From Gammaproteobacteria bacterium (GTDB taxonomy: Bacteria; Pseudomonadota; Gammaproteobacteria; JAJDYQ01), in the NCBI GenBank assembly GCA_963662865.1, contig OY759969.1:1903742-1967741 (forward strand): a DNA stretch of 64,000 nucleotides. The letters are read 5' to 3'. Both the position numbers and the translations under genes were made by a program. Each line of letters opens with the position of its first letter. Positions within the stretch are counted from its first letter, which is position 1. The notes beneath the pieces were generated by a model, which was not told the DNA's origin, did no database searches, and saw only the letters and a list, made by a program, of their open reading frames with translations. This document shows, in pieces, positions 1-63,600 of the stretch.

Positions 1-2754
1 CAGGGTGACGGTGATTGCTTTGGCGGCGCCTTCCATGACGTTGCCTGCGGTTCCCGCCAGGGTCACTGTGGTGGCGTCGTCGTCGGTTACCGTCGCTGTC
101 ACTGAGACCGGGGCGAGTGCGTTGTATAGGGCATCGCCCGTGGAGTTGATGGCGTGGGTAATGGTCACTTGCTGATTGGCGGCGTCGGCGTTGTTATCCA
201 GCCCGGCGACGGTGATGGTCTGGACCGTGTCCCAGTTGGTGGCGGTGAAGGTCAGGCTGCCGCTGACTATGGCGGTGTCCGTCATGCCTGAGGTGGGCGT
301 GATGGTGACGTTTGCGGTCGGTTGGGTGGCCAGCATCACGCCGTATTCGTCCGTGCCGCCGTTTTCGGTGAGCGTGGTGGCGTCGTTCGTTTCGGTGATG
401 GTCACGCCCGCCGTGTCGTCGTCGGTGATGGTGAAGGTGACGCGGTTGGCGGTTGGGGAGATGACGACGTCGGGAGGGGTACTTGAGGTACTCCGTCGCA
501 AGGTCAGGGTCACGGTCTGGTCCAGCTCGTCCACTGTGTCGCCGTTTATCCGAATCTTGCGCTGAAAGCTGCGGAGATTGGGGACAAGAACAGTCGGGTC
601 ATCTACACCCGACGAGCACTCGGCTAAAGCTTCAGCGTTGGTGTTAATGGCTGTTGCACTATTATCGGGGTCGGTGTACCGCCAGTCGGCACTGTCGCCA
701 AGGGTGGCGGTGCCGCTCAGACATATCTCGATTCCGAACCCCGCATTCGGACGTGGCGGGTCGATGGTTATCGTCACGGTCGCGCCGTCGGTAATGTCGG
801 AATCGCCCTCGGCGGCCATGGTGCGGTCCAGGCTGATTGATAGGGTGTGGACGGCGGCATCGCCTACCATCACGTCGAAGGTATTGTCGCTGGCGTGCGG
901 GTCGGCGCCGCCGCCGACATTGGTGGCCCGGCTGGCGAGGTCAAAGCCGTTGGCGCTGTCGTCGTTCGGGCCCAGTGCGATGGTGTAGGTCTCGGTGCCG
1001 CCGCCCTCGGCGGTGTCGTCGAGCGTCGTGGTCAGCACCAGGGTGGCGGTCTCGGCGCCTGCGCCTGCAAAGCTCAGCAACGGGGTGGCCGTGGCCTCTG
1101 CCGACAGGGTGACGCCGGTGCCGGCGGCTGCCAGGCTCCAGTCGTCTGTGGTGACTCCGGTGCCGCCGATTGACAGTGGCACGTCGATGATTTCGCCGGC
1201 TGTCAGTGCCCGACTCAGGGCGATGGTGAAACCCACTGTGCCGCCTTCGTCAATGGCGCCGGTGCCGCCGGTGCGGGTCAGGGAGACGACCGTGGGGTCG
1301 TCGTCGGTGATGGTGTAGGTGACGCGGTTGGCGTCCGGGTCGATAATGATGCTGGCGGGGGTGACGCCGCCAATCCGGCCCAAGGTTATTTGCAGTGTCT
1401 CGTCGGTTTCATCCACCGTGTCGCCTCTGGCGCGGACCCTGCCTATACGGCTGGGCCCGCTCGAAAACAAGGTTTCTAGATTTATGACGTGATTAAGGGC
1501 TAGAGTCGGAACAAAGGGGAACAGGACGTCTGTGAGGGCGAGACCGGTACTACCTGACACATCCAAACGGACAAACCCTGTCGCACCCGGCGGGTCGATG
1601 GTCAACGTCACGGTCGCACCGTCGCTCAAACCGGAATCGCCTTCGGCTCCCATTGCGGAGTCGATACTGAGCGACAAGACGTTGGCGTCGTCGTCAATGA
1701 CCTGGACCGAGGCCGAATTCTGGGAGGGGGACACGGTGTGGGCGATGGTGCCGAGCAAGGTGACGGTGACCGGGCCGCTGCCTTCTGACGTGGTGTCGGC
1801 CACGGTCGGCACGGAGTAGATGGCGCTGCCGGAGGTCGGCACGGTTACTGTCTGGGTGCCCTCGTTGGTGGAGGCCACGAAGTCGCGGCTGCCCGAGGCG
1901 TCGGCGACAAACAGGCTGACTGTCAGGGCCGCGCTGGGCGTGGGTGTTACGGTAATGGTGAAGCTGGCGGTGGCGCCTTCCGTCACCGGTGAGGTGCCGG
2001 CGGCGATGGTGATGACCGAAGCGCTCTGTGCCACTACAAAGATCGGGGACAGACCGAAGTAGCTTCTACGTGTACCGCTCGGTGAGTCAGCGCTACTCAA
2101 ACCATCAGCTGGCGACCCATATCTGACATTCGGTGCGAAATTCTGTCCCAATGTTCTAAGCGCACGGTCGGGAAATGCGGTTCCATTGTCGCGGCTGCCG
2201 GTATAGGCAGTGCCGGTTTGGGAGGCTCCATTTTCGTTGCGTCCTGCTGCGCTATTCCACGAGCCGTCGTGGAAGTCCGGGTAATTATCGGCGACCCGGG
2301 GGCCGTCCAGCCAGTAGATGGGCACGCCGGTACCGGTGGTCATGGCATGGTCGCGGGCGTCCACCGCGGTGGTTGAGTAGAGGGCGCGGAAGGTCGCGCT
2401 GTAGGGCCGGATGGCTGTGTGGCCGGCTGCGACGCGATTCCGCACGTGGATATCGTATTCGCTGGCGTTACGCGCGGTCGCATTGCGTGTGGTGGATGAG
2501 ATGAACAACAACCGGAAGCTTTCTCCGGCACCGATGGACGACGGTTTCAGTGCCCAATCCTGGGGGACGGTGTAGGTGCCGTCGGCATTGGCCGACTGGG
2601 CGGCGGCTTCGCTGGCCAGTGCTGCCAGCAGCGGCAGGCCGAGCAGCACGGCGGCCAGGCCGCGGCGCAGGGTGGAAAGGCTAAAGCGGTTCAGGACAGA
2701 GGCGAACCGATGGGATGCCGAGCGCCGCCCTGTGTCGGTGGCGAGGCTCAACAT
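1..2754 (-). CDS. Giant repeat adhesin, N-terminal part (gene continues beyond window start). Sec signal peptide, ~170-aa unknown N-domain, then Calx-beta/Ig-like ~115-aa repeats
   Basis: The minus-strand ATG at 2754..2752 opens with MLSLATDTGRRSASHRFASVLNRFSLSTLRRGLAAVLLGLPLLAALASEAAAQS, which is signal-peptide-like. The frame was checked codon by codon at 1..60 and stays open (..VTLAGTAGNVMEGAAKAITVTL), matching repeats of the 54641..64000 giant protein. The ORF track shows no complete minus-strand ORF here, consistent with the frame running off the edge. Plus-strand ORFs at 176..2062 are antisense shadows. Confidence 0.7.
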   Translation of the reverse strand, partial: MLSLATDTGRRSASHRFASVLNRFSLSTLRRGLAAVLLGLPLLAALASEAAAQSANADGTYTVPQDWALKPSSIGAGESFRLLFISSTTRNATARNASEYDIHVRNRVAAGHTAIRPYSATFRALYSTTAVDARDHAMTTGTGVPIYWLDGPRVADNYPDFHDGSWNSAAGRNENGASQTGTAYTGSRDNGTAFPDRALRTLGQNFAPNVRYGSPADGLSSADSPSGTRRSYFGLSPIFVVAQSASVITIAAGTSPVTEGATASFTITVTPTPSAALTVSLFVADASGSRDFVASTNEGTQTVTVPTSGSAIYSVPTVADTTSEGSGPVTVTLLGTIAHTVSPSQNSASVQVIDDDANVLSLSIDSAMGAEGDSGLSDGATVTLTIDPPGATGFVRLDVSGSTGLALTDVLFPFVPTLALNHVINLETLFSSGPSRIGRVRARGDTVDETDETLQITLGRIGGVTPASIIIDPDANRVTYTITDDDPTVVSLTRTGGTGAIDEGGTVGFTIALSRALTAGEIIDVPLSIGGTGVTTDDWSLAAAGTGVTLSAEATATPLLSFAGAGAETATLVLTTTLDDTAEGGGTETYTIALGPNDDSANGFDLASRATNVGGGADPHASDNTFDVMVGDAAVHTLSISLDRTMAAEGDSDITDGATVTITIDPPRPNAGFGIEICLSGTATLGDSADWRYTDPDNSATAINTNAEALAECSSGVDDPTVLVPNLRSFQRKIRINGDTVDELDQTVTLTLRRSTSSTPPDVVISPTANRVTFTITDDDTAGVTITETNDATTLTENGGTDEYGVMLATQPTANVTITPTSGMTDTAIVSGSLTFTATNWDTVQTITVAGLDNNADAANQQVTITHAINSTGDALYNALAPVSVTATVTDDDATTVTLAGTAGNVMEGAAKAITVTL

Positions 2755-2767
2755 AAATACCCCATTT

Positions 2768-2790
2768 GGGGGGGGGGGGGGGGGGGGGGG
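2768..2790. repeat. Homopolymeric G23 tract (C23 on coding strand), 13 nt upstream of the giant adhesin start codon
   Basis: Directly visible: cccatttg(g)23cattaaattg. Minus strand reads TTTAATG-C23-AAATGGGGTATTT-ATG. Confidence 0.95.
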
Positions 2791-3145
2791 CATTAAATTG
2801 TGTAGGTCGCCTGTGGCCGCTTGCAGGGGCTTTGTCATCATGATAAATTCCTCTCTCTCCAATGAAAAGCAAGCGGCTTTGCGGGCCGCTTCATTCTTAC
2901 ATCCGCTGTTGTCTGTTGCCGGTGCGGGTTCCGGGGGCGTTGCCGATTCCAGACCTGTGTCATACCGGCAATTTGAACCAATCTTAGCCACATCCGGGAC
3001 GCATTGCAAGCCTTTTTTTTGTTTTTAGTTGCACGGCGTGGTTCGAGTTTGTGGTGATGCATCGCTTTTTATTTCGTTTGCATCGGGGTTTAATTAACTG
3101 TTCGGGTGAATTAAACTTCGTTCTTTTTGCTATCAGGGGGTCAGT

Positions 3146-3709
3146 ATGGTCAGTCTGGAGACACCGGTTTGTGATTTTAACCGGCCCGCCATTGATTTTT
3201 CATTGTCGGGCGTGGATGGAAAGACCTGGACGTTACGGGATTGTGCGGGCGAGAAGGGTCTGCTGGTCATGTTTATCTGCAATCATTGTCCGTATGTCAA
3301 GGCGGTCAGGGACAGGATTGTACGGGATACCGATGGGCTTAAACCGATGGGGCTGAATAGTGTCGCTATCATGTCAAACGACCCGACGCAGTATGAGGAG
3401 GATTCCTTTGAAAATATGCGGATGGTTGCGGAGGAGTACGGCTTTGGTTTTCCTTATCTGCTGGATGAGACTCAGGCCGTGGCCAGGGCCTATGGCGCGG
3501 TATGTACTCCCGATTTCTTTGGCTATAACGCGGACCTGAAGCTGCAGTACCGTGGCCGCCTGGATGAGAGCCGTAAAGAGGCTGCGGGACCGGGGGTGCG
3601 CCGGGAGCTGTTCGAGGCGATGAGGCTGGTTGCCGAGACGGGCCGGGGGCCGGCTGATCAGGTGCAGAGTATTGGCTGTTCCATTAAGTGGATCGGCGAG
3701 TCGCTTTAA
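3146..3709 (+). CDS. Thioredoxin-fold thiol-disulfide oxidoreductase (AhpC/TSA-redoxin family)
   Basis: 187 aa with a CxxC motif (FICNHCPY) in a thioredoxin-like context. Confidence 0.7.
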   Translation: MVSLETPVCDFNRPAIDFSLSGVDGKTWTLRDCAGEKGLLVMFICNHCPYVKAVRDRIVRDTDGLKPMGLNSVAIMSNDPTQYEEDSFENMRMVAEEYGFGFPYLLDETQAVARAYGAVCTPDFFGYNADLKLQYRGRLDESRKEAAGPGVRRELFEAMRLVAETGRGPADQVQSIGCSIKWIGESL

Positions 3710-8332: not shown

Positions 8333-9793
8333 ATGCCAAGAAGGACCAAGATTGTTGCCACCCTGGGGCCGGCCACAGATGAGCCCAGGGCCCTGGATGA
8401 GTTGATTCAATCGGGTGTTGATGTCTGCCGTATCAATTTTTCTCATGGTTCAGCCGAGGAGCACAGGGTTCGTGTCGAAACCGTTCGTAACCGTGCCCGT
8501 GCCTGCGGGCGTCAGATCGGGATTATTGCTGATTTGCAAGGCCCCAAGATTCGTATCGGTTCATTCAGGAATGGTTCCGTCGAATTGACTGAAGGTACCA
8601 TGTTCGCGCTGGATGCGGATATGGATATTGCAGCGGGTGATGGAACTGCGGTCGGTATCCTCTACAAGTCTTTACCCGATGATGTGATCCGCGGCGATAC
8701 TTTGTTGCTTGATGACGGCGCTATCGTATTGTGGGTGGATGATGTTGAAGGATCTAAAATACACTGTCGCGTCGTGGTGGGCGGGACGCTTTCAGATAAG
8801 AAAGGCATCAACAAGCAGGGGGGTGGCCTGTCAGCGACTGCGCTGACCGGAAAGGATATGCAGGATATTAAAACAGCGGCCGAGCTTGAAACAGATTATC
8901 TGGCCCTGTCTTTTCCTCGCAATGCCGAAGATGTCAATCTGGCTCGTGACCTGTTGCGTAAGGCCGGCGGGCATGGCGGCATAATTGCCAAGATTGAGCG
9001 TGCCGAGGCGTTGACCAGTATTGATGAGATCATTGAGGCTGCTGACGCCATCATGATTGCCCGTGGTGATCTGGGCGTGGAAATCGGTGATCCGGAATTG
9101 CCGGGGGTGCAGAAAAAACTGGTCGCCCGGGCCCGTAAAATGAATCGTGTGGTCATTACGGCCACGCAAATGATGCAGTCCATGACCGAGAATCATACTC
9201 CGACCCGTGCGGAGGTTATGGATGTGGCAAATGCCGTGCTGGATGGTACCGATGCGGTCATGCTGTCAGCAGAGACATCGGTCGGTAAGCATCCTGCAAA
9301 AGTGGTTGCTGCCATGGGTAAGATTTGCCGGGGTGCCGAGAAACAGCGCGAGGCTATGATTTCTAATCATCGCACGGGTACGACTTTCGATTATATTGAT
9401 GAGGCTATCGCCATGGCGACCATGTACACGGCGAATCACCTGGGCGTCGCAGCGATTATTTCTCTTACTGAGTCAGGTGCAACGCCTCTATGGATGTCCC
9501 GTATCAGCTCGGGTATCCCGATCTATGCGATGACTTCCCGCGTGAAAACACGCCGTAAGGTGACGTTGTATCGGGGGGTCTATCCGGTTAGTTTCAAGTC
9601 GGATTTTGCCGATCACACCATCGTCAATAAGGAGACCGTTGATGATCTGGTACGGCGTGGTGCGGTGCGCGATGGGGATCTGGTAATTATTACCAAGGGC
9701 GATCTGGCCGGTATTACCGGGGGAACCAATGCGATGAAGGTTGTTAAGGTCGGGGAATTGCACGCTCCGGAATATTGTAAAATTGATTCATGA
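8333..9793 (+). CDS. pyk: Pyruvate kinase
   Basis: Internal ATG at 8333 gives MPRRTKIVATLGPATD.., 486 aa, a typical PK start. The longer ORF from 7976 overlaps pgk and is rejected. Confidence 0.9.
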   Translation: MPRRTKIVATLGPATDEPRALDELIQSGVDVCRINFSHGSAEEHRVRVETVRNRARACGRQIGIIADLQGPKIRIGSFRNGSVELTEGTMFALDADMDIAAGDGTAVGILYKSLPDDVIRGDTLLLDDGAIVLWVDDVEGSKIHCRVVVGGTLSDKKGINKQGGGLSATALTGKDMQDIKTAAELETDYLALSFPRNAEDVNLARDLLRKAGGHGGIIAKIERAEALTSIDEIIEAADAIMIARGDLGVEIGDPELPGVQKKLVARARKMNRVVITATQMMQSMTENHTPTRAEVMDVANAVLDGTDAVMLSAETSVGKHPAKVVAAMGKICRGAEKQREAMISNHRTGTTFDYIDEAIAMATMYTANHLGVAAIISLTESGATPLWMSRISSGIPIYAMTSRVKTRRKVTLYRGVYPVSFKSDFADHTIVNKETVDDLVRRGAVRDGDLVIITKGDLAGITGGTNAMKVVKVGELHAPEYCKIDS

Positions 9794-37293: not shown

Positions 37294-37405
37294 AACAAAG
37301 TGAAATAAGCTCTATCTTATTTTACTTTTAATCAACAAAGTGAAATAAGCTCTATCTTATTTTACTTTTAATCAACAAAGTGAAATAATAATTTCTATAT
37401 TTCAC
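37294..37405. repeat. 40-bp tandem repeat (2 full copies plus a diverged third) carrying three GTGAAATA sites at 40/39-bp spacing. It ends in an inverted repeat GTGAAATA-N10-TATTTCAC 14 nt before the fic ATG
   Basis: AACAAAGTGAAATAAGCTCTATCTTATTTTACTTTTAATC appears twice, then AACAAAGTGAAATAATAATTTCTATATTTCAC. Confidence 0.9.
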
Positions 37406-37418
37406 TTTTTGAACATAC

Positions 37419-38561
37419 ATGGCCATTAAGTTAGAAAAATATCGGTCCGGGAAATTTCTTAAGGGAGCTCAGTATCAATTTTTCTTGCCTGCTCACATTA
37501 ATGAGAGTTGGAACTGGGATAGCCCACAAATCAATCAACTGGTTGAAAAAGCGGCAATCAGACTGGGAGAGCTGAATTCATATGCCCATCAGGTTCCCAA
37601 TATTGATCTTTTTATACAACTGCATGTCACCAAAGAGGCTGTGGTATCCAGCCGGATTGAAGGCACCAAAACCGATATAGACGAGGCGCTGCTGCCCGAG
37701 GAAGAAATCAATCCGCAGCGCCGAAACGACTGGAGAGAAGTCAAAAACTATATTCGGGCCATGAGCGAAGCCATACTGACGTTACGGGAGTTGCCATTAT
37801 CTTCGCGTTTATTAAAGCAGGCACACAGGGAACTACTCAGTAATGTTCGAGGGGAACACAAGTCTCCCGGTGAATTTCGCACCAGCCAGAACTGGATAGG
37901 TGGTATCAACCTGACGGATGCGGTATTCATTCCGCCCGAACATCAATATGTGCCCGAGTTGATGGGCGACCTGGAAAAATTTCTGCACAATACAGATATT
38001 CATATCCCGGAACTTATCCGTATTGCGATCGCACACTACCAGTTTGAAACCATACATCCCTTTCTGGATGGCAATGGAAGAATAGGCCGCCTGCTGATTA
38101 CTCTATTTCTCGTCAGCAAGGGTATCCTTGATCAGCCGTTGTTATACCTCTCCACATATTTTGAAAAAAACAGAGCCCTCTATTACGAAAATCTGATGAG
38201 AGTGCGGACACACAACGATATGTTGCAGTGGCTGAAATATTTTTTGTCTGGAGTGGAACAGACGGCTACCGAAGCCGTTAAGACACTGACCCGTATCATG
38301 GAGCTGAAAACCGGTATCGAACGTCAGATACATGGCGAGTTCGGAAGACGGGCCGCCAGTGCAACATTATTGCTGCAAGAGCTATTCAAACAACCCATAG
38401 TCAGTGTGGATCAGGTAGCAACATTCTGTAGTGTAAGCTATCGGCCAGCCAATAATCTGATTGCCCTGATGTGTGAGCACCGCATCCTCACGGAAATCAC
38501 CGGACAAAGCCGTAACAGGCTATTTGCATTTAAGCCCTATCTGGAAATTTTCAACATTTAA
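37419..38561 (+). CDS. fic: Fic family protein (class II AMPylase with internal inhibitory helix and C-terminal wHTH)
   Basis: Canonical HPFLDGNGRIGR Fic motif plus the inhibitory [ST]xxxE[GN] motif (SSRIEG). Low GC. Confidence 0.9.
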   Translation: MAIKLEKYRSGKFLKGAQYQFFLPAHINESWNWDSPQINQLVEKAAIRLGELNSYAHQVPNIDLFIQLHVTKEAVVSSRIEGTKTDIDEALLPEEEINPQRRNDWREVKNYIRAMSEAILTLRELPLSSRLLKQAHRELLSNVRGEHKSPGEFRTSQNWIGGINLTDAVFIPPEHQYVPELMGDLEKFLHNTDIHIPELIRIAIAHYQFETIHPFLDGNGRIGRLLITLFLVSKGILDQPLLYLSTYFEKNRALYYENLMRVRTHNDMLQWLKYFLSGVEQTATEAVKTLTRIMELKTGIERQIHGEFGRRAASATLLLQELFKQPIVSVDQVATFCSVSYRPANNLIALMCEHRILTEITGQSRNRLFAFKPYLEIFNI

Positions 38562-38779: not shown

Positions 38780-40135
38780 TCAGAACTGACGCACAAACCG
38801 CAACTCAAGACGGTTGCGGTCATAACCATACAACTGTGCATTTGAGTTGCGCCGCTCATTCACAAGCTGCAACTGCGGGCTGAAGCCATGCAGCGTGAAG
38901 GCGCGATTGGATGCCGAGAGGCGCACGATACGGGTGCGGTCCTCACGGGAAGAACCGTCTGTGAATGGAGACCAGTTGCCTTCGTATTCGGTACGGCGCA
39001 GCTCACCGCTTGCCCCCACCGTGAACCCCAGTGGCAGGGCCCGGGAAGCTCCCAGCCGCAGCCACAAGGCCCTGTTGCGCCATACCAGGGAATCAGGGCG
39101 CTCCCGCCCATAACCGAATGCGGCGTCGATGCGGGTTGTCGAGGTCGCCAGCCAGGAACCGCCCAGCGAGAACGCGGTGACCGGCCCATCCAGCCCTGTC
39201 CTGCGCTGATAACCGCGCCGATGCCAGGACAAGCGCATATAGGAGGTCAACCGGCGCGTCAGACGATGTTCGGCCTCCAGGCGCAGCCCATGTTCACGGC
39301 TGTGGGAGCGGCCGGCGAGCCAGCGGCGGCGCGTACCACCGAGCAGGCTGAACTCCGTTACCGGGCCTGCCAGCCAGCGTGGTCCGATCTGCGCCGATAC
39401 AAAGGTCTGATCAAAGTCCCTGCCGGCATATTCACGCCGGGCCAGATCGACACCGGTGCGCAGCCGCCAGCGTTCGCCCAGCGGATATTGATACTCGCCG
39501 CCGCCCCAGAACACCATCCCGATACCGGACTGCTCATCCGAGCTGTCATCGAGGCGAAACGGCAGGCCGCCGATCTCAATGACCTCTTCACCGGAGGAGG
39601 CGTTCAGGTTGCTGTCGGGGGCCAGTGAGATGCCAAAGTAGCTGCTCCAGCGGCGCCGCTCGCGGATCGCGTTCAGGAAACGATGGACATTAGACGCGAC
39701 CGCGGCCCCGGGTCGGCCGGCCAGCACGCGCTCGAACTGCCGCTGCGCCAACTCGTCCTCACCCTTCAGGAAAAGTGCCTGCGCCAGCTCCAACCTGACC
39801 CGCACCAGTTCAGGCCGGTCAATCAGGATGGTGTGATAGGCCGTGATTGCCTCATCCAGCAGGGCATCCCCGGCGTCCGCCTCGATATCCGGCTGCCGGG
39901 ATGCGCGGGACGCCGCCAGACCGAGCAGGAACAGCACATCGGTCTGGTCTGCATGGTCGGCTGCCAGCGGACGCAGGATCGACAATGCCTCGTCAAAGCG
40001 CCTGTCTTTAATCAGGGTCCGCGCCTGATTGACCTGGGGGTCGGATGACAGATGTTCACGGCCTTCCGCAGCCAGGGCAGTGGACGGATACAGCAGCGCC
40101 AGGGCGATCAGCACACCGGCCAGCGGCTTGGTCAT
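38780..40135 (-). CDS. Slam-like outer-membrane protein (surface lipoprotein assembly modifier, TPR N-domain plus DUF560 beta-barrel)
   Basis: 451 aa. Signal peptide, TPR-like periplasmic region, and a C-terminal amphipathic beta-strand region ending ..LELRFVRQF (terminal Phe). Lies adjacent to a TbpB-like lipoprotein gene. Confidence 0.6.
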   Translation of the reverse strand: MTKPLAGVLIALALLYPSTALAAEGREHLSSDPQVNQARTLIKDRRFDEALSILRPLAADHADQTDVLFLLGLAASRASRQPDIEADAGDALLDEAITAYHTILIDRPELVRVRLELAQALFLKGEDELAQRQFERVLAGRPGAAVASNVHRFLNAIRERRRWSSYFGISLAPDSNLNASSGEEVIEIGGLPFRLDDSSDEQSGIGMVFWGGGEYQYPLGERWRLRTGVDLARREYAGRDFDQTFVSAQIGPRWLAGPVTEFSLLGGTRRRWLAGRSHSREHGLRLEAEHRLTRRLTSYMRLSWHRRGYQRRTGLDGPVTAFSLGGSWLATSTTRIDAAFGYGRERPDSLVWRNRALWLRLGASRALPLGFTVGASGELRRTEYEGNWSPFTDGSSREDRTRIVRLSASNRAFTLHGFSPQLQLVNERRNSNAQLYGYDRNRLELRFVRQF

Positions 40136-40196: not shown

Positions 40197-41594
40197 TTAC
40201 TGTCTGTGTGCACCGAAGGCACCCAGCAGGCTGGCGCTATCATCAGCAGCCCCCGCACCGAATGTCCCGGCCACTGAACCTGGATGATCGGTGGCGCTGT
40301 CGCCATTACTATAGAATTGACCGCCCCATCGGCCGGTGAAGGCGCTGCCGTCAAACGTCATGCTGGTAGCGCCAGTGAAGAATCCGGAGCCTGCACTACC
40401 GATATTGGCCGTCCCCAGCGTTAATACCGGATCCCCGGTAACAGCGTTACCGTCCTCCGTGACAGTATGGATCCGTCCATTAATGGTGCCAAGGGCAGAA
40501 CTATTACCAAAATTAGCCGTCAGCGTGGCAAGGGCATCGACGTAACGGATCTCCGATACGTCGGTATATACGCCGGTTGCCACTCCGTCGTAGGTTGCCG
40601 TGCCGGTCAGCCCGGCGATATTGGCCTGCGTGAACGGGTCACTGCCATCCGCAAAGGCACCAACCGTGACATCGCTAGCGCTCTCCGCGTCGTTGGGAAT
40701 GTACAACCAGATCCCGCCCGCTAGATAGTCGGTGTCTGGAGTGGTCCTGACTATTGTGGCAGGGACGAAAATCCAGTTGCCTGTAAGTGAACTCAATCTC
40801 CCGTTGCTTGTGCCACGTCCGCATAAGTCGCTTAGGCATCTGAAATATCCACTCTGACCATTGTACGTGCCAACGGTTCGATCCGTATCAAACCGCCCGG
40901 TAAACACTACACCGGAAACTCCGGAAATGTCGGTCGAGCCTGGCGGCCGGTCAGGCGTGAACATCCATGCCCCGGCGGTCGTTCGACCATTGACATACGC
41001 GCACGAAGCGGCGCAGGAAAATGTGCCTGATTGACCGTCTAGCGTACCTCCGAAACTCGTAGAACCGCCAACGCTTAACGATACCCCACTAGTGGCAACC
41101 AACGTTCCCGCAGAGACGTCTACGGTGCCGTCGTTGCCAGCCCCCAGCTGCTGCTCAGGCGCTTCGATATCGGAATAGATATCGACATATAAGTCACCGT
41201 CGTCGCCATCAAAGCGCAACCCGGAACCCTTGAACCCTAAGTCCCTGGCGTTTTCTACTATTGGGTATGAGGTATTAAGAGCGGCGTCGGACGACCCGAA
41301 GCTAATGGTGCTGTCATCTTCATCAGTTACAGTTATCATGTAGCTGTTCTGGCGCTCTCCGTACGTCACTGTTATGTCTACAGCATCAGTCGTGACACCA
41401 CTATTAACGTTTGACGACTGCGTGACAGAACCACGGTTGGGCGTTGCACTGGCAGCCACTGATGATCGCTCCATCCTATACTCCTGCTCAGCCTCAGTCA
41501 GGTTGTCAAGCGGACGTACTACACCGCTGCCACCACCGCCACCACCGCCACCGCCACCACAGCCGGACAGCGCGAGCGCCGCGACTGTAATCAT
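40197..41594 (-). CDS. Surface lipoprotein with TbpB/fHbp-type C-terminal beta-barrel handle (putative Slam substrate)
   Basis: ATG at 41594 gives MITVAALALSGC (lipobox). This is followed by an 11-Gly linker and a beta-rich body ending ..SLLGAFGAHRQ (TbpB-like C-terminal motif). The ORF-track start at 41828 is a TTG inside or upstream of the repeat and is not favoured. Confidence 0.55.
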   Translation of the reverse strand: MITVAALALSGCGGGGGGGGGGSGVVRPLDNLTEAEQEYRMERSSVAASATPNRGSVTQSSNVNSGVTTDAVDITVTYGERQNSYMITVTDEDDSTISFGSSDAALNTSYPIVENARDLGFKGSGLRFDGDDGDLYVDIYSDIEAPEQQLGAGNDGTVDVSAGTLVATSGVSLSVGGSTSFGGTLDGQSGTFSCAASCAYVNGRTTAGAWMFTPDRPPGSTDISGVSGVVFTGRFDTDRTVGTYNGQSGYFRCLSDLCGRGTSNGRLSSLTGNWIFVPATIVRTTPDTDYLAGGIWLYIPNDAESASDVTVGAFADGSDPFTQANIAGLTGTATYDGVATGVYTDVSEIRYVDALATLTANFGNSSALGTINGRIHTVTEDGNAVTGDPVLTLGTANIGSAGSGFFTGATSMTFDGSAFTGRWGGQFYSNGDSATDHPGSVAGTFGAGAADDSASLLGAFGAHRQ

Positions 41595-41599
41595 CGCTA

Positions 41600-41869
41600 T
41601 TACGATGTTATAATATTGCTGATTGCTGATTGCTGATTGCTGATTGCTGATTGCTGATTGCTGATTGCTGATTGCTGATTGCTGATTGCTGATTGCTGAT
41701 TGCTGATTGCTGATTGCTGATTGCTGATTGCTGATTGCTGATTGCTGATTGCTGATTGCTGATTGCTGATTGCTGATTGCTGATTGCTGATTGCTGATTG
41801 CATTATCTTGTTCCCCCTTAGGCTCCAAGCTAAAATATACATAAATATCAGGCTGAGAAAATTCCGCAT
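41600..41869 (-). CDS. Leader ORF reading through the heptanucleotide repeat. Hydrophobic N-terminus MRNFLSLIFMYILAWSLRG followed by (SAISNQQ)n
   Basis: ATG-initiated. It stops 5 nt before the lipoprotein ATG with 26 repeat copies, and would fuse in-frame with 27 copies. Confidence 0.25.
   Translation of the reverse strand: MRNFLSLIFMYILAWSLRGNKIMQSAISNQQSAISNQQSAISNQQSAISNQQSAISNQQSAISNQQSAISNQQSAISNQQSAISNIITS
41617..41798. repeat. Perfect heptanucleotide SSR, 26 x TGCTGAT (ATCAGCA on the coding strand)
   Basis: Directly visible. 182 bp (not a multiple of 3), with no stop codon in any frame. Confidence 0.97.
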
Positions 41870-54640: not shown

Positions 54641-57600
54641 CTACCAGTGCAGCTTCCACTGTGCGCCGATGCCGTGGTTGGTTTTGCCTTCACCGTCCCG
54701 GCGGCGCAGGGCCTTGATGTCCAGCTCCGTGTCCGGGCCGCCCGGTGCCGACAGCAGGCGCCAACCCACGGTCAGATCGCGCCCGGAACCTGAAGATGTG
54801 CCGGACGACGACAGGCCCGCATATGGAATGCCGGTGGCGCCGTCACTCAGGGCCAGGCCCCACTCGCCCTCCAGGCTCCAACGACCGGAGGCCGAACCGG
54901 GCTGTGAGGAATCACCCTCCAGCGCCTCCGATAACGAATCCGACAACAACCGGTCCAGGCCGCCAGAAGCCGCGGCGGTGCCGTACTCCTGACGCACACT
55001 CAGCGACGGGCCGTAGGCCGTGTCCGGTTGCAGCTCGTAGCGCAGCGAACCCGATACGCCCCACTCTCGCCGCTCGGCGGCATCATGATCCAGCAGACGC
55101 CGACCGCGCACATCCACCGTCAAGCCCCTCGACGGCAACTCCCAACTGATACCGCCGCCCAGTTCCACTCCCACTCCGTCGCTGCTATCGCCGCCGTCAT
55201 AGCGCATCCCCAGCTCCAGTTCCGGTACCAGGCGACCGCCGTCCGCCTGCGGCATCTGCCACGACCACTCCAGGCCCAGACGCAGCCGCTGCGTGTCTGC
55301 CGTCAGGCCCGCTACGCCCCCGTCATCGTCATTCGATTCAATCCGCGCCAGCGTCGCATCCGAGGTCAGCTCCAGCTTCAGACCGCCTGCCTCCACCGGC
55401 CGCTCCAGCAGCGTGCCGCGCAGCCCCACCGAGGCCGATAGCTGATTAATGTCATGCCTCGAATCAGCCGATGTCGAACTCTGCTCCAGGTTGCCAAGGC
55501 CATAACTCGCCGCCGCCCATAACTGCAATCTCTCGGTGACGTTGTGTCGGATATACGGCAGCAGCGACGCCAGCGTGCTCGACAATTCGCCCTGGGCACT
55601 CGCTCCACTCCAGTCTCCAGTGCCTTCGCTGTATGACAGCGCCAGACCCAGCAGCGTCCGTCCGTTGTCGCTGTCCACTCCCAGCAGGCCGGTCGTCACC
55701 TCGCCATCCACCGTGACCCCCTCGCGGGCATCTTCGTAGCGCGAGTACGACGCCTGACCCCACACCGAAACACCGTCCTGATCGGTGTACACGAAACGGC
55801 TGCCGCTCAGCATATCGCGCAGCGACAGCGTCCTTGACAGGTTCAACAAGCGGTCAACCGAACCGGCCCCCAGGCCATCGCCATGGCCGGCGCCCTGACC
55901 GAAGCCGTCCGCACCCAGACCCGATACATCACCGATTCCATGATCGACCCCAGGCAGTGCACGACCAGAGGACAGACCGCTCACATTGCCCGACAGCCCC
56001 GGCGCACGATCCGTCAACGAAAAACGCGCATCCAGGCCGCCCAGCATATGTTCTAACGCCATCAGTCCGAAGCGCGGCAGCCAGGTCTCCTGCGCCGCCT
56101 GCATCTGCGATGTCTCGGTCTCTCCGTCCGTCACCGTGACAACCACCGATTCCGGACTCAGGCCGTCCGTCGGGTAGCGGCCACCGTCGCCGTTGCTGAT
56201 GCGGTGGCCGATGCTCGCCGTGCGTGCTCCTCCGGGGTGGTCTATGTCGTCAACCACCCCGGTCACCGTCACGACCTGGGCCGTGTTCCAGTTAACCGTC
56301 GTGAACGTCAGCGTCGACGGGCCTGCCGTCGCCGCCGTCGGCGTGTCGGAGGTCACCGTCAGCTGCACCGGTGCGCCCGGCTGCGAGTCCAGCACTACCG
56401 TGTAACTCGCCGTGCCGCCATTCTCATTGACCGTCGCGACATCAACGCTGATCGTCACTCCCGGGGCCGCATCGTCGTCCGTCACCGTGACAACCACCGA
56501 TTCCGGACTCAGGCCGTCCGTCGGATAACCGCCACCGTCTCCGACGCTGATGCGGTGGCCGATGCTCGCCGTGCGCCGATTGCCGGGGTTGTTGATGTTG
56601 TCGTCCACTCCGGTCACCGTCACTCTCTGAGCCGTGTCCCAGTTAACCGTCGTGAACGTCAGGCTCGCCGGGCTGACCATGGCCGCAATCGGCATCGTCG
56701 AGGTCGTGGTAATCTCGACATCGCCCGCCGGCTGCGAGGCCAGCTCCACCGTGTAGCTCGCCGTGCCGCCATTCTCATTGACCGTCGCGACATCAACGCT
56801 GATCATCACTCCCGGGGCCGCATCGTCGTCCGTCACCGTGACAACCACCGATTCCGGACTCAGGCCGTCCGTCGGATAACCGCCACCGTCGCCGTTGCTG
56901 ATGCGGTGGCCGATGCTCGCCGTGCGCCGATTGTCGGGGTTGTTGATGTTGTCGTCCACTCCGGTCACCGTCACTCTCTGAGCCGTGTCCCAGTTAGCCG
57001 TCGTGAACGTCAGGCTCGCCGGGCTGACCATGGCCGCAATCGGCATCGTCGAGGTCGTGGTAATCTCGACATCGCCCGCCGGCTGCGAGGCCAGCTCCAC
57101 CGTGTAACTCGCCATGCCGCCATTCTCATTGACCGTGAAATCCTCCATCGCGCTGATCATCACTGCCGGGGCCGCGTCGTCGTCAAGCACCGCAACCACC
57201 ACCGCCGTCAGGCTCAGGCTCGTCGGATAACCGACGCCGTCTCCGACGCGGATGCCGTGGCTGATCCTCGTCCGGCGCCGGTCGCGCGGCGAATTGTCGA
57301 GGCGGTCGTCAACTCCTCTCACCGTCACCGTCTGCTCCGTGTCCCAGTTACCCACCGTGAACGTCAGAACCGCCGGGCTCGCCGTCGCCGCCGTCGGTAA
57401 ATCAGAGCTCACCGCAATCTCTACAGCCCCCGCCGGCGGCGTGGTCAGCACCACCGTGTAGCTCGCCGTGCCGCCGTCCTCGGCACCATTCTCGTTGACC
57501 GTCACTCCGGTCTCGCTGAAACGCACACCGGCTTCGTCGTCGTCCACTACCGTCACGGCAAGCGATTCCAGCGTCAGGCCGTCCGTCGGGTAGCTGTTGC

Positions 57601-60600
57601 CGTCTCCACGGCTGATGCGGTGGCTCAGGCTTACCCTGCGTTCGCCTCCGGCATTGTCTATGCGGTCGTCAACTCCTCTCACCGTCACTTCCTGGGCCGT
57701 ATTCCAGTTGCCCATCGTAAAGGTCAGGCCCGTCGGACTCACCGTCGCCGCCGTCTGATCCGAGCTCGCAATCATGAGCTCCACATTACCCGACGGTTGG
57801 GTCGACAGTTCTACCGTGTAGGTGTCCGTGCTGCCGTTCTCGACTATGCGGGTCGCTCCTGCCGTCTCAACCAGGGTCACGCCCGCCATGTCGGGGTCGG
57901 TGATCGTGACCGGCAGCTGCGCCGTCACTCCGTCATAACCATCGCCCGTGGCACTCGCCGTGTGTGTCAGACGGGCCGTGTCATCCACGGCGTCCACGTC
58001 GGTATCGGCCGTCACCGTGATCGTCTGTACCGCGCTCCAGTTGGCCGACGTGAACGTCAGGCCGCTCGGCGTCGGGCTCAGGTCGGTGCCGCTGTGACCC
58101 GTCACCGCAATGGCCACATTGACCATCGGCCGGGTCGCCAGTGATACCGCGTAACCCACGGCGCTGCCGCCCTCGGTGACCGTCAGGCTCGCCGGCATCA
58201 GCACGATGGTCGGCTCCTCCATGATGACGAAGTCCGCCAGATTGTCGGTGCCCCTGGCGCCGCCGCCCAGGTTGGTGCCGGTGGTCGTACCCAGGGGGCC
58301 CAGGTCGATGTCGATGGTCTCGTTGGCGTCGGTGATGATGTCGGTCAGTATCCGCAGCGTCAGCGTGGCCGCGCTTACGGACGGGCCGCTAAACGTCACC
58401 GTGCCGGCGCCGCCGCTGTCCGGGATGTCGTAGGCGATGTTGTTCGCCGGGGTGCCGGTCAGGGTGTAGTCCGTGCCCCGCTCCGCGGTGCCGCCCAGGG
58501 TCAGCGGCACCGCCAGGCTCTCGCCGCTGATCAGGCCGCGGTTCAGGGTCACGCTCAGGGCGCTGGTGGCCCCCTCGTTGAGATTGCCGCCCGCTCCCGA
58601 CAACGTCACGACGGTGGCATCGTCGTCATTGACCGCGACCATCGCCACCGGCGAGGGGCCGACCATGTAGCCGTCGCCATCCGCCACGGTCACCGTGAGC
58701 GTGCCGCTGGCCTCGTCTGTGACGTCGGCCTGCGTGGCGACTTCGTAGGTCACCGTGGTGGCACCGCTCGCCAGGGTCACCGTGGCCTCGCCCTCGGCGC
58801 CTGAATCCACAAAATTACCCGCCGCGGCGTCTGTCACTGCCACTGTAATCGACAGCTCTGCACCCGGTGCCCGGCTGGCCGTCAACGTGAAGGTCGCCGA
58901 GCTGCCCTCGGTGACCGCGGCGCCGCCGGTGATGTCAATCACCACCGGTTCTTCAATGGTGAAGTCCGCCAGGCTGTCCGTACCGCTGGCTCCGCCGCCC
59001 AGGTTGGTGCCGGAGTCGCCGTCCAGGGTACCCAGGTCGATGTCCACCGTCTCGCCGCCGCCCTCGTCCACGCTATCGACCGTCGCGCTCAGCGTCAGCG
59101 TGGCCACGGTCGCCGTCATGCCCGTGAGGGGGCCGGTAAATGTCACGGTACCGGCGGCGCCGTTCAGGCCGGTGTAGCTGACTCCGCTCGCCGCGCGGCC
59201 GGTTATGCTGTAGTCCGTGCCCGGTGTCGCCGCGCCGCCAAAACTCAGCGGCACCGCCAGTACCTCGCCCGCCACCAGGGCACGGCCCAGGGTCACGGTG
59301 ATGGTTTTGGCATCGCCTTCCGTCAGGTTGCCCGCCGCGCCCGCCAGGGTCACCGGGGTGGCGTCGTCGTCGCTCACCGTCGCCGTCACCGAAGCAACCG
59401 CAAGGCCGCTGTAATTAGAATCCGTCGAGGTCGCCGCGTGGCTGATGATCACCGTCCGGTCGGACGCGTCGGCATCGTTATTGACCCCGGTGACCGTCAC
59501 CGTCTGTGCCGTGTCCCAGTTGCTGTCGCTAAAGATCAGGCCAGCCGCCGGACTCACCGTGGCGAGGCTCGCCATGCCCGAGGTCGCCACAACGGTCACG
59601 TCGCTGGTCGGTTGGCGGTTCAGCACCATCGTGTAGCGGGCCGAACCGGTCTCCGTGAGCGTGGTGGCACCGTTCGGCTCGACGAGGGTCACCCCCGGCG
59701 GCGTATCGTCGTTGAGCACCGTGTAGCTGACGCTGGCGGCGCCTGGCGCTATGGCCACGTCTTCGGGCGTGGTGCCGACCCGATCCACGGTGACGATGAC
59801 CGTCTCGTCGTCTTCGTCCACCGCATCGCCGCTGACCCGGATCTTATAGGCCACGCTGGCCTGATCGGCCGCAAAGCTCAGCTCAAGGGCGCCCGTGATT
59901 TCGCTATTGTCGGCTTGAGTGAATCGATAGTCGCTGCCGCGAGTGGCGGTGCCGCTCAGTTCCAGGCTCAGCGCAAAGCCCTGCGGGCGCGGCGGCGTCA
60001 CCGTCACCGTCACTGTCGCCCCGTCGCTCAGGCCCGTATCGCCCTCGGCACCCATGGCCGGGTCGATCGCGACCGACACGATGTGGCTGGCGGCGTCAAC
60101 CACTTCCACATCAAAGCCGTTGGCGCTGCCGTGCGGGTCGGCTCCGCCGCCAACATTGGTGCCCAGGCTGGTGTGATCAAAGCCATTGGTGCCATCGCCG
60201 TTCGCGCCCAGCTCGATGCGATAGGTCTCGGTGCCCTCGTCAATGTTGTCCGCCTCCGGGCTCAGTTCCAGGGTGGCGGTCTCCGCTCCCTCTGCAAAAC
60301 TCAGCAACGGGGTCGCCGTGGCTTCGTTTGTCAGGCTCACGCCGCTGCCGGCGGCGGCCAGGCTCCAGTCGGCTGTGGTCACATTCGTGCCGCCGATCGA
60401 CAGCGGCACGTCGATGATCTCGCCGGCGCTCAGTGCCCGACCCAGGGTGATGGTGAAACCCACCGTGCCGCCTTCGTCAACGGCACCCGTGGTGCCCGTG
60501 CGCATCAGGCTGACGACCGTCGGTTCGTCGTCTCTCACCGTCGCCGTCACCGAGTCAACCATAATGTCGTTGTAATCGGCGTCCGTCGAGGTCGCGGCAT

Positions 60601-63600
60601 GGGTGATGGAACTCTGCCGGTCGACGGCGTCGGTACTGTCATCCGCCCCGGTGACCGTGACCGTCTGCACGGCCTCCCAGTTGGCCGGCGTGAACGTCAG
60701 CCGGGGCGGGCTCACCGTGGCCGCACTGGTCGTACCCGAGGTCGGCACGATGACCACATCGGCGGACGGTTGGGTGTCCAGCTCCACCGTGTAGGTGTCC
60801 GTGCCGCCGTCCGCACTGCCGTCCTCAACGACCGTGGTGCCTCCCTGCGTCTCGGTGAGGGTCACGCCTGCCTCGTCGTCGTCGCTCACCGTCACGGTGA
60901 CCGGGGCCGGGCTCAGGCCGTTGGTCGGATAGCTGCGGCTGTCGCCGGTGCTGATGTGGTGGCTGAGGCTCGCCGTGCGTTCACCGCCGGCGTTGACCCG
61001 ATTGTCGTTGATACCCGTCACCGTCACCGTCTGCGCCGTGTTCCAGTTGGCCGTCGTGAATGTCAGGGTCATCGGGCTCACCGTGGCCGCACTGGTCGTA
61101 TCGGAGGTCACCGTGATCTCGACTGCGCTCGCCGGTTGCGTGGCCAGTACCACGGTGTAGGTGTCCGTGCCGCCATCCGCGCTGCCTTGCTCAATCACCG
61201 TGGTGTCGTCTTGCGTCTCGGTGAGGGTCACGCCCGCCTCGTCTTCGTCGCGGGTGTTGACCGTGATCTGTGCCGTCACGGTGTCGTAGTTGCCGCCGGT
61301 GGCCGTGTGCATCAGCGTCGCCGTGTCATCGTCGGCGTCGGCGTCGGTGCCCGCCGTCACCGTGAAGCTCTGTATCGTATTCCAGTTGGTCGCCGTAAAT
61401 GTCAGGGCGTCCGGGCTCAGGGTCAGCTCGGTGCCGGCTTGACCCGTCACTGCAATCGTGACATCGATCGTCGGGAGCACGGCCAGGGACACCGCATAGT
61501 TGGCGCTGGCGCCTTCTGTGATCGCCAGGGTCGGCAGCAGCACGATGGCCGGGTCCTGCATGATGGTGTAGTCCAGGCTGCCCGTGCCGATAAGCGCGCC
61601 GCCCAGGGGGCCGCCCGGCCCGCTGCCGGTCGGGGTGCCCGGGGCGATGGTGATGGTCTCGCCGGCGTCGTCGGCGTCGTCGGTCTGCACGGCCAGGGTC
61701 AGCGTGGCAATGGCCGGGGCCGGGCCGGTAAATGTCACCGTACCGGCGGGGCCGCTGTCCGGGATGGTGTAGGCGATGCCGTCCGCATCGGTGCCGGTCA
61801 GGGTGTAGTCCGTGCCCCGTGTCGCGGTGCCGCCCAGGGTCAGCGGCACGGCCAGGCTTTCGCCGGCGGCCAACGGGCGGTTCACGGTGACCGTGAGGTT
61901 GCGGGTGACGCCTTCGTTGATGTCAGCCGCCGTGCCCGCCAGGGTCACCGTGGTGGCGTCGTCGTCGCTCACTCCGACCATGGCCGAGGACGGCATACCA
62001 ACGGTGTAACCGGTGCCGTCCGCTATGGTCATCGTGATCAGGCCGTTGGTCTCGTCGATGGCGTCGGCCTGTGTGGGGATTTCAAGGGTGGCTGTGGTGG
62101 TGCCGGACAGGGTCACCATGCGCTCGCCTTCGTCGCCTGCATCCAGATAATCACCGGCGGCGGCGTCCGCGACGGTCAGAGTAATGTCCAGGTCGCTGCT
62201 CGGGACCCGGTCGGCGGTCACCGTGAAGGTCACGGAACTGCCCTCGGTGACCGCGGCGCCGCCGGTGATGGTGAGAATCGACGGGTCTTCGATGGTGAAG
62301 ATATTCAAGATGTCTGCGTCGAATGCGCCGCCGCCCAGGTTGGTGCCGGAGTCGCGGCCCAGGGTGCCCAGGTCAATGTCCACCGTCTCGCCAGCGGCCT
62401 CAACCTCGTTGTCGAGGGTCGCGGTCAGGGTCAGTCTGGTCCTGTCCGCGGACGGACCGGTAAAGGTCACCGTGCCTGCGGCGCTGTTCAGGCCGCTGTA
62501 GGCGATGCCCATCGCCGCGGGGCCGGTGACGGTGTAGTCCGTGCCCGGTGTCGCCTCACCCATGAAGGTCAGCGGCACCGCCAGGCTCTCGCCGGCGATC
62601 AGGGGGCGGGTCAGGGCGACGGTGAAGACTTTGCTGGCACCTTCCGTGATATTGCCTGCGGTGCTCGACGACAAGGCCACCGCGGTCATGTCGTCGTCAC
62701 GCACCTGTACCGTGGCCGCGGGCGGTGTGTCGACCGTGTAACCGGTGCCGTCCGCGATGGTCGCCGTGATCAGGCCGTTGGGTTCGTCGATGCGGTCGGC
62801 CTGCGTGGCGATTTGAACGGTGGTCATGGTGGTGCCGCCGGGCAGGTTGACCATGCGGGCGCCTTCATCGCCTGAGTCCAGATAATCACCCGGGGCGGCG
62901 GCGTCTGCGACGGTCAGCATGATCGGCAGGTCGGTCGCCTGGGCGCGGCTGGCCGTCACCGTGAAGGTCGCCGCGCTGCCTTCGGTGACCGCGGGGCCGC
63001 CGGTGATGCCGATGACCGGCGGCGGGCCGCCGATGTTGAAGTCCGCCAGGTTGTCGGTGCCGCTCGCGCCGCCGCCCAGGTCGGTGCCGGAGTTGCTGTT
63101 CAGCGTGCCCAGGCCGATGATGACCGACTCGCCGCTGGCCTCAACATCGCTGTCGGCGGTCGCGCTCAGGGTCAGGGTGGTGCTGGCGGCCGATGGGCCG
63201 GTGAAGGTCACCGTGCCGGCGGCGCTGCCCAGGCCGCTGTAGGTGACGCCGCTCGCCGTGGCGCCGGTGACGGTGTAGTCCGTGCCCGGGGTCGCCTCAC
63301 CCATGAAGGTCAGCGGCACTGCCAGCGCCTCGCCGGCGGCCAGGGCACGGCCCAGGGTGACGGTGAATGCCTTGTCGGCGCCTTCCATGATGTCGCCCGC
63401 GGCGCCCGCCAGGGTCACCGTGGTGGCGTCGTTGTCGATGATGAACAGCGTGTGGGTCGAGGTGGAGCCCGGCGTATAGTCCGAGCCTATTGTAGTCAGG
63501 GTCAGTGCGGCCGACTCCCTGATCTCGTCCAGGCTGTCATCAATAATGGTCACCGGAATGCTGACGCTGCTGGTGTTCGCGGTGACCGATATGCGGCGGC

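Follow-up and report, generated by a model that had tools for sequence, protein, structure and literature searches.

What does an uninterrupted run of 23 cytosines do a few nucleotides (nt) in front of a gene for a giant, probably secreted protein, and does its length matter? The question was raised by a 64-kb stretch of gammaproteobacterial DNA (contig OY759969.1; the whole stretch, 64,000 nt, is called the window here), whose plus strand carries G23 at 2768-2790, that is C23 on the minus, coding strand. We propose, with modest confidence, that C23 is a contingency locus prone to slipped-strand mispairing, and that it most likely acts as a translational frameshift switch in an extended 5' coding region of the gene, called the adhesin gene below.

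Difference in tract length between two strains

The tract is pure at 23 of 23 positions and is the sole homopolymer longer than 9 nt within the window, in which the next G/C run has 7 nt and a G/C run of at least 23 nt has an expectation of 8.5e-9 under independent, identically distributed bases. A gap of 13 nt (AAATGGGGTATTT, with GGGG at 2763-2760) separates it from ATG 2754, the order on the minus strand being ...CACAATTTAATG-C23-AAATGGGGTATTT-ATGTTGAGC.... From this ATG an open reading frame (ORF) of 918 codons continues past the left end of the window. The original prediction, made from the letters of this DNA alone, had placed C23 between a TTTAAT hexamer and GGGG, 13 nt from the start codon, and every one of these elements is present.

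It had also asked how the length of the tract compares across strains. The sole other readable contig that encodes the AhpC-type gene of the window (3146-3709) exactly is ctg19358l of ENA ERZ21861969 (51 kb; L001 below), and a look-up with the transketolase led to the same contig. Over an 8.9-kb housekeeping stretch (AhpC, transketolase, GAPDH, PGK, pyruvate kinase and aldolase) it is 99.4% identical to the window, and over the 360 nt that precede the tract the identity is 100%. At the orthologous site, L001 bears C39-A-C31, an allele of 71 nt against 23 in the window. Two strains of a single species thus have tracts whose lengths are three-fold apart. The lone A inside the longer allele may be a consensus error.

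All tract lengths given here come from assembled contigs, judged to be of the HiFi/metaMDBG type from contig names alone. A poly-G read artefact or a collapsed repeat, against which the original prediction had cautioned, would find some ground in the error-prone nature of homopolymer lengths, in the doubtful A of the 71-nt allele, and in the indels of low-coverage contigs of the same protein family. However, C23 lies inside both the window and its contig, with unique flanks on both sides, and since it is present, at another length, in an independent 51-kb assembly with identical unique flanks, we consider the tract real. Homologous tracts in other assemblies and phyla, described below, speak against an artefact as well, and such an origin appears to us barely credible. 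An exact-match scan of JGI metagenome contigs with the left flank of the tract gave 0 matches.

A promoter-spacer model was tried and rejected, as 23 and 71 nt cannot both form a 16-19-nt spacer and flanking hexamers are absent: TTTAAT, for which there is no -35 element, precedes the tract, and so does the sole sigma-70-like pair found. The originally proposed placement in a promoter/5' untranslated region (5'UTR) is doubtful.

Reading frame through the tract

The adhesin frame stays open upstream of ATG 2754, a point that the original prediction had overlooked, and translation of 3021-2600 gives a stop-free ...EREEFIMMTKPLQAATGDLHNLMPPPPPPPPNGVFMLSLATDTG.... Both ATGATG (2841-2836) and ATG 2793 are in this frame at the two known lengths, 23 and 71. 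When tract length was varied in silico, lengths of 2 mod 3 yielded a full-length fusion, and lengths of 0 or 1 mod 3 yielded peptides of 30-53 amino acids (aa). At 1 mod 3 the leader ends at the TGA within ATGTTGA, 4 nt past the internal ATG 2754, giving a product of 30 aa; at 0 mod 3 reading continues for 27 codons beyond this ATG, giving about 52 aa. The duplex with the 16S rRNA tail (the anti-Shine-Dalgarno sequence) was calculated at -8.2 kcal/mol before ATG 2841, compared with -6.1 kcal/mol for GGGG before ATG 2754. In L001, the gene caller chose the equivalent of the upstream ATG as the start, which resulted in a protein of 1095 aa.

The following mechanism may be proposed on this basis. 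Ribosomes would start at ATGATG, which is preceded by a Shine-Dalgarno (SD) sequence, or at the ATG abutting the tract; from the former they would read a 17-codon leader and then translate the tract as poly-proline, and would go on into the signal peptide and all that follows it only at tract lengths of 2 mod 3, such as C23 and the 71-nt allele. Addition or removal of one or two C during replication would shift the frame, so that only peptides of 30-53 aa would be made and the protein would be off. The 1-mod-3 state might be leaky, because the stop codon overlaps ATG 2754 and reinitiation could occur there. It is our inference that the upstream ATGs are part of the mRNA and serve as starts, that tract length varies within populations, and that expression of the protein does switch.

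A different explanation, rather unlikely in our opinion but deserving serious attention, is a switch located in the 5'UTR or close to the promoter. The mRNA would then begin either near 2833 or within the tract, translation would proceed from ATG 2754 by means of GGGG, and tract length would set mRNA level, mRNA structure or initiation, in the manner of a volume control. This would be consistent with the -10-like hexamers TATCAT (2845-2840, with TTTTCA at a spacing of 17) and TTTAAT (2797-2792), with the terminator-like hairpin just upstream of the SD sequence, and with the annotation of a paralogue, P0001, from the equivalent of the downstream ATG 2754. Among homologous loci, the tract-free L007 has a strong SD sequence and a start at the equivalent of this downstream position, and in L017 and L011 arrays of heptamers sit between a -10-like TACAAT and the start codon, which is a 5'UTR layout. 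It is also conceivable that CCCC-AAAT-GGGG pairs and masks the weak SD sequence; however, folding of the 5' region was no better than that of shuffled sequences (z = -1.44), a structured leader is not claimed, and Rfam detected no RNA family in 2500-3300. On the other hand, a 5'UTR switch would leave unexplained the SD-preceded leader ORFs which run into the tract in five lineages, as well as a homologue (L003) whose main ATG has no SD sequence at all. It would have to be a coincidence that three in-frame ATGs precede or adjoin the tract. The translational switch is better supported than the 5'UTR model because the SD-preceded ATGATG and ATG 2793 are in frame at both lengths and the gene caller chose the upstream ATG in L001, and it is to the coding sequence rather than the 5'UTR that we would tentatively assign the tract.

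Several observations nevertheless weigh against the translational switch. Transcription from the sigma-70-like pair would start at about 2833, downstream of ATGATG, and the terminator-like hairpin, as well as the arrangements in L007, L017 and L011, fit it poorly. The predicted fusion has about 60 residues, including 8-24 prolines, before the hydrophobic core, which is long for a Sec signal and prone to stalling. That both alleles share one frame has a 1-in-3 chance. Assembled homopolymer lengths may be 1-2 bases off, which makes the on and off states insecure, and indel errors were seen in low-coverage contigs of the giant-protein family. Very long G:C tracts may also cause slippage of RNA polymerase, established for A/T runs and by extrapolation for C runs, and this would blur a strict switch.

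The positions of the elements considered here are collected in Table 1. The hairpin upstream of the SD sequence, identical in L001, is a candidate insulator or leader structure.

Table 1. Sequence elements at the 5' end of the adhesin gene and regions of its product (positions in the window)
Element	Position	Strand	Remarks
Terminator-like hairpin AAGCGGC-CCGCAAA-GCCGCTT, then T-rich GCTTTTCATT	2871..2891	minus	directly upstream of the SD sequence; identical in L001
Sigma-70-like pair TTTTCA-17-TATCAT, 9/12	2840..2868	minus	if used, mRNA start at about 2833, leaving out ATGATG
SD-like GGAGAGAGAGG	2850..2860	minus	8 nt upstream of ATG 2841
ATG-ATG, candidate true starts	2836..2841	minus	48 nt upstream of C23; in frame when the tract is 2 mod 3 (20, 23, 26 ... 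71)
TTTAAT, -10-like hexamer	2792..2797	minus	1 nt upstream of C23; no matching -35
ATG directly abutting the tract (TTTAATG-C23)	2791..2793	minus	in frame at n = 23; weak SD
Perfect C23 homopolymer, putative hypermutable element	2768..2790	minus	would code for Pro8 if read from the upstream ATGs
GGGG, weak SD-like	2760..2763	minus	5 nt upstream of ATG 2754
Downstream ATG (MLSLATDTG...), part of ATGTTGA	2752..2754	minus	opens the 918-codon ORF
Putative signal-peptide-like region: long n-region, h-region GLAAVLLGLPLLAALA, then AAA-QS	2593..2754	minus	aligned with the N-termini of homologues
Conserved N-terminal domain of about 190 aa (DGTYTVPQDW..FRLLF..VDARD..GVPIYWL)	2020..2583	minus	no Pfam model
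Repeat-rich rest of the giant, putatively secreted protein	1..2019	minus	runs off the window end

The same genome harbours another repeat of this kind. A perfect (CAATCAG)26 array (41615-41801, minus strand) follows ATG 41803, which is preceded by an SD sequence (GGGGGA), and lies before a lipobox, LALSGC, in a gene for a 530-aa putative surface lipoprotein (40197-41803); the adjoining gene (38780-40135) encodes Slam (PF04575, 1e-25). With 24 or 27 copies the lipoprotein is in frame (on), and with the 26 copies seen here it is out of frame (off). To judge from this locus beside a Slam gene, the organism does use classical contingency loci. Both repeat loci are preceded by TAATG: TTTAATG-C23 (2791-2797) and GATAATG-(CAATCAG)26 (41801-41807). 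DNA uptake sequences of Neisseria and uptake signal sequences of Pasteurellaceae were looked for, and none were found. Elsewhere in the window, a perfect, AT-rich 40-nt tandem repeat of 2.4 copies (37294-37388) is located just upstream of a Fic/DOC-family gene (37419-38561).

The giant, probably surface-exposed protein and its relatives

The original prediction described the product as a secreted repeat adhesin of more than 900 aa. Its size was confirmed by the 918-codon ORF, and its N-terminus resembles a signal peptide with a long n-region (MLSLATDTGRRSASHRFASVLNRFSLSTLRRGLAAVLLGLPLLAALASEAAAQS, also ...RRGLAAVLLGLPLLAALASEAAAQS). The name adhesin is a label suggested by protein size, the signal peptide, the repeats and homologues with Calx-beta and fn3 matches; in the window's protein itself Pfam gave no significant domain, adhesin-type or repeat, even at E<=5. 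The longest ORFs of homologues in four other loci (L002-L005) have 1378-1732 aa. A profile search with the N-terminal domain found 7048 cluster representatives (E<=1e-3); the domain often occurs in several copies, up to 14 per protein, and proteins carrying it reach 7601 aa. Its AlphaFold model is of moderate quality (mean pLDDT 63.7), and the four best PDB matches to this model are all endostatin (E 2.6e-3 to 9e-2, TM 0.41-0.59), so that an endostatin-like or C-type-lectin-like fold may be suggested tentatively. It would be a possible eukaryote-like domain in sponge-associated bacteria.

The adhesin gene diverges rapidly between the two strains. In the comparison of window 1-2754 with L001 6409-9574, where the ORF is intact in both, nonsynonymous divergence (dN) was 0.058-0.156, and its ratio to synonymous divergence (dS) was 1.18 overall and 2.3-3.1 over the first 260 codons. 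In the neighbouring housekeeping genes dN was 0 in three of the four tested and 0.004 in GAPDH, with dS of 0.004-0.016; adhesin dS is 4-14 times higher. Identity between the strains falls from 100% upstream to 93-88%, with the break exactly at the tract, and within the gene it is patchy (81-98% per 150 nt). These results suggest that the adhesin evolves as a surface protein, under diversifying selection, through recombination with paralogues, or both. The signal-peptide-like N-terminus, the repeats, the domains of homologues and dN/dS above 1 together indicate a product that is probably exposed on the surface or secreted, and faces the host.

Paralogues are indeed at hand. The contig of 2,573,357 bp that encodes the housekeeping proteins of the window also carries the genes for P0001 and P0020; the former shares its first 19 residues identically with the adhesin, and the latter is frameshifted. 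A further giant paralogous ORF (54641-64000, minus strand; more than 3114 aa) continues beyond the right-hand limit of the window and contains 351-nt tandem repeats at 56125-57475. In L001 a relative of this gene lies directly downstream of the adhesin, hence the locus has been rearranged between the strains.

One could thus imagine that the tract serves to initiate recombination: its G-rich strand (G23-G71), folded into a G-quadruplex or a slipped structure, would promote gene conversion with paralogues and antigenic variation, by analogy with the G-quadruplex of Neisseria pilE, and variation in tract length would be a by-product. The drop in identity exactly at the tract, the elevated dS, the patchy identity and the presence of at least three paralogues in the same 2.57-Mb genome, one of them with the identical 19 residues, would all agree with this scenario. 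However, a gene-conversion test against the paralogue at 54641-64000 gave no clear donor patches, and the 10-17-nt tracts of other lineages lie in leader ORFs, as would be expected of frame switches. Moreover, the pilE G-quadruplex is a defined motif upstream of a promoter and not a homopolymer. We give this explanation very little credence.

Homologous loci provide the broader argument. A genome scan with the N-terminal domain revealed four distant loci, all in metagenome-assembled genomes: one of Candidatus Poriferisodalis (Actinomycetota), two of Dehalococcoidia and one of Acidimicrobiales. In three of the four, the longest homopolymer of the 18-21-kb locus is found at the 5' end of the giant homologue. 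Further loci came from additional look-ups and the JGI scan. Where tracts occur in these homologues, they have 10-17 nt and occupy the same position as the window tract.

The dehalococcoidial L003 has C15 ending 2 nt before ATG 9854 (MLRARRARAARG...). Its upstream GTG 9810, with GAAGGGAG at 7 nt, would be fused to the main frame at C13 or C16; with the observed C15, the TGA of ATGTTGA terminates the leader, and the main ATG, as mentioned, is devoid of an SD sequence (+0.2 kcal/mol). Upstream of this gene lie two copies of a repeat of about 100 nt (9100-9199 and 9468-9567), each ending in C10. In Candidatus Poriferisodalis (L002), G13 ends 4 nt before GTG 9314, and the upstream ATG 9226, with GGGAG, fuses at G12 or G15; here TAG overlaps the GTG, while the ATGTTGA of the window is found again in L003. 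The Acidimicrobiales locus (L005) bears G17 some 80-90 nt before the signal-peptide region, and its upstream ATG 6501, with GAGGAGG, fuses at G16 or G19. In a circular 2.01-Mb genome of 53.7% GC (L016), G10 is preceded by ATG 3789 with GGGAGG, and fusion occurs at G8 or G11; the main frame is open for 49 codons from the tract, which has a chance of 0.165. In a contig from a Sarcotragus foetidus sponge metagenome (L012), C14 forms the contig end, about 55 nt upstream of the family gene.

A leader ORF with an SD sequence and a start codon was present upstream of the tract in all five readable lineages. In a shuffle test for an ATG or GTG that has GGAG or GAGG 4-10 nt before it and whose ORF runs into the tract, chance was 0.08-0.30 per locus and 8e-5 jointly, under criteria picked post hoc. 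Some lineages have C on the coding strand and others have G, which argues for a slippage function at the level of DNA, indifferent to the strand, and not for an RNA motif.

In other members of the family the tract is replaced by heptamers or is missing. Three contigs of high GC content from sponge metagenomes carry heptamer arrays: (AGCGCCG)16 at 2852-3003 of L017, between TTGACA...TACAAT, with a perfect TTGACA, and a GTG start; (AGAGCCG)15 at 2463-2574 of L011 (Aplysina aerophoba), right after the -10-like TACAAT; and (AGAGCCG)10 at 988-1057 of L010, 2 kb upstream. The first two are apparent 5'UTR repeats. L004, L007 and L013 are free of repeats; the first of these is the orthologue of L003, has an interrupted, C-rich CCGCTCCCTACCC, and is contiguous in frame with an ATG further upstream. 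In L008, from a circular genome of 3.76 Mb, an internal C9 (3737-3745) lies at the end of the N-terminal domain, and the gene is split into calls of 271 aa and more than 1280 aa, owing either to an intragenic switch of a second type or to an error in the consensus. L019 and L020 were set aside as tract loci, the former being an internal domain copy and the latter an indel at 5x coverage. N-terminal proline or glycine runs were found in 3 of the best 150 family representatives, a census that is uninformative because genes in the off state are annotated from other starts.

These loci also bear on the simplest of the alternatives, namely that C23 has no function and results from runaway slippage: neutral expansion in a tolerant 5' region, with expression from ATG 2754 whatever the length. 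The extreme and very unlike lengths of 23 and 71 nt would suggest weak constraint. Yet a G:C tract occupies the same place in no fewer than six independent lineages of three or more phyla and is in each case the longest homopolymer of its locus, for which chance was estimated from locus lengths at below 1e-7. Neutral expansion would also have to accommodate the purity of the window tract and the second repeat switch in the same genome, and we regard it as very improbable. The idea of an unstable repeat, put forward at the outset, has thus gained from the length change between strains, from the tracts and heptamers at the same place in homologues, and from the (CAATCAG)26 locus.

Comparison with known contingency loci

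Homopolymeric contingency loci are textbook knowledge in Neisseria, Campylobacter, Helicobacter and Bordetella. The window locus most likely belongs to this class, and would be noteworthy for the length of its tract and for its recurrence across phyla. In open-access papers and bioRxiv we found no report on phase variation or contingency loci in sponge symbionts. It is quite possible, although we would stop short of asserting it, that sponge-associated bacteria of at least three phyla (a Slam-bearing, proteobacterium-like lineage, Chloroflexota/Dehalococcoidia and Actinomycetota/Acidimicrobiia) have convergently placed hypermutable repeats, be it 10-71-nt G:C tracts or heptamer arrays, at the 5' end of one giant surface-protein family with more than 7000 cluster representatives. 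If this were true, the random turning on and off of proteins that face the host, until now a hallmark of vertebrate pathogens and commensals, would be a general strategy of sponge symbionts; the tracts would exceed all those described in length, and might also seed recombination among paralogues. Lengths of 23-71 nt would stretch the known range for such switches. Recurrent 5' repeats combined with diversifying evolution point to the giant family as a possible focus of interaction with the host (or phage) in sponge microbiomes. There is also a practical side, since such tracts break short-read contigs (L012) and mislead the annotation of start codons (P0001, P0016).

Among the known systems, fim2 and fim3 of Bordetella pertussis and porA and opc of Neisseria have homopolymers in their promoters, between an activator site or the -35 element and the -10 element, which act by spacing. 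The window tract resembles them as poly-C or poly-G upstream of a surface-protein gene, but no promoter elements flank it, and its alleles of 23 and 71 nt cannot both be spacers. In Moraxella catarrhalis, the poly-G of uspA1 and the (AGAT)n of uspA2 are located in the 5' untranslated leaders of large adhesin genes and cause graded expression. This is the layout of the heptamer-bearing relatives L017 and L011, and the one which the 5'UTR model would assume for the window; in contrast to the uspA genes, the window tract has SD-preceded, in-frame ATGs upstream. Repeats placed just after the ATG are known from genes for surface lipoproteins in Neisseria and Haemophilus. ATG 41803 with (CAATCAG)26, its lipobox and the adjacent Slam gene correspond to these, but as the repeat unit is a heptanucleotide and the gene a different one, this locus provides only context for the C tract.

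The closest counterparts are intragenic. Phase variation of pilC in Neisseria depends on a G tract within the gene, near the signal-peptide region, and Neisseria tracts in general have roughly 17 nt or fewer. Meningococcal nalP (mspA) is reported to undergo phase variation by an intragenic poly-C tract (PMC3723659). In Gardnerella, nanH3 contains 8-14 C in its 5' coding region, just after the part for the signal peptide, and the annotated start codon flips (JCP8151B) (bioRxiv 10.1101/2020.09.16.300947). As in pilC, nanH3 and nalP/mspA, the window has a G:C homopolymer in what would be the 5' coding part of a gene for a secreted or surface protein, and short, frame-dependent peptides are predicted for the off state. 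The start annotation moves downstream when the tract is out of frame, as seen with P0001 here and with nanH3 in JCP8151B. Tracts of 23 and 71 nt in the window species are far longer than the 8-14 nt of nanH3 and than those of Neisseria. Unlike in pilC, nalP and nanH3, the tract precedes the hydrophobic core instead of lying inside or after the signal peptide, and its host is an uncultivated, probably sponge-associated bacterium.

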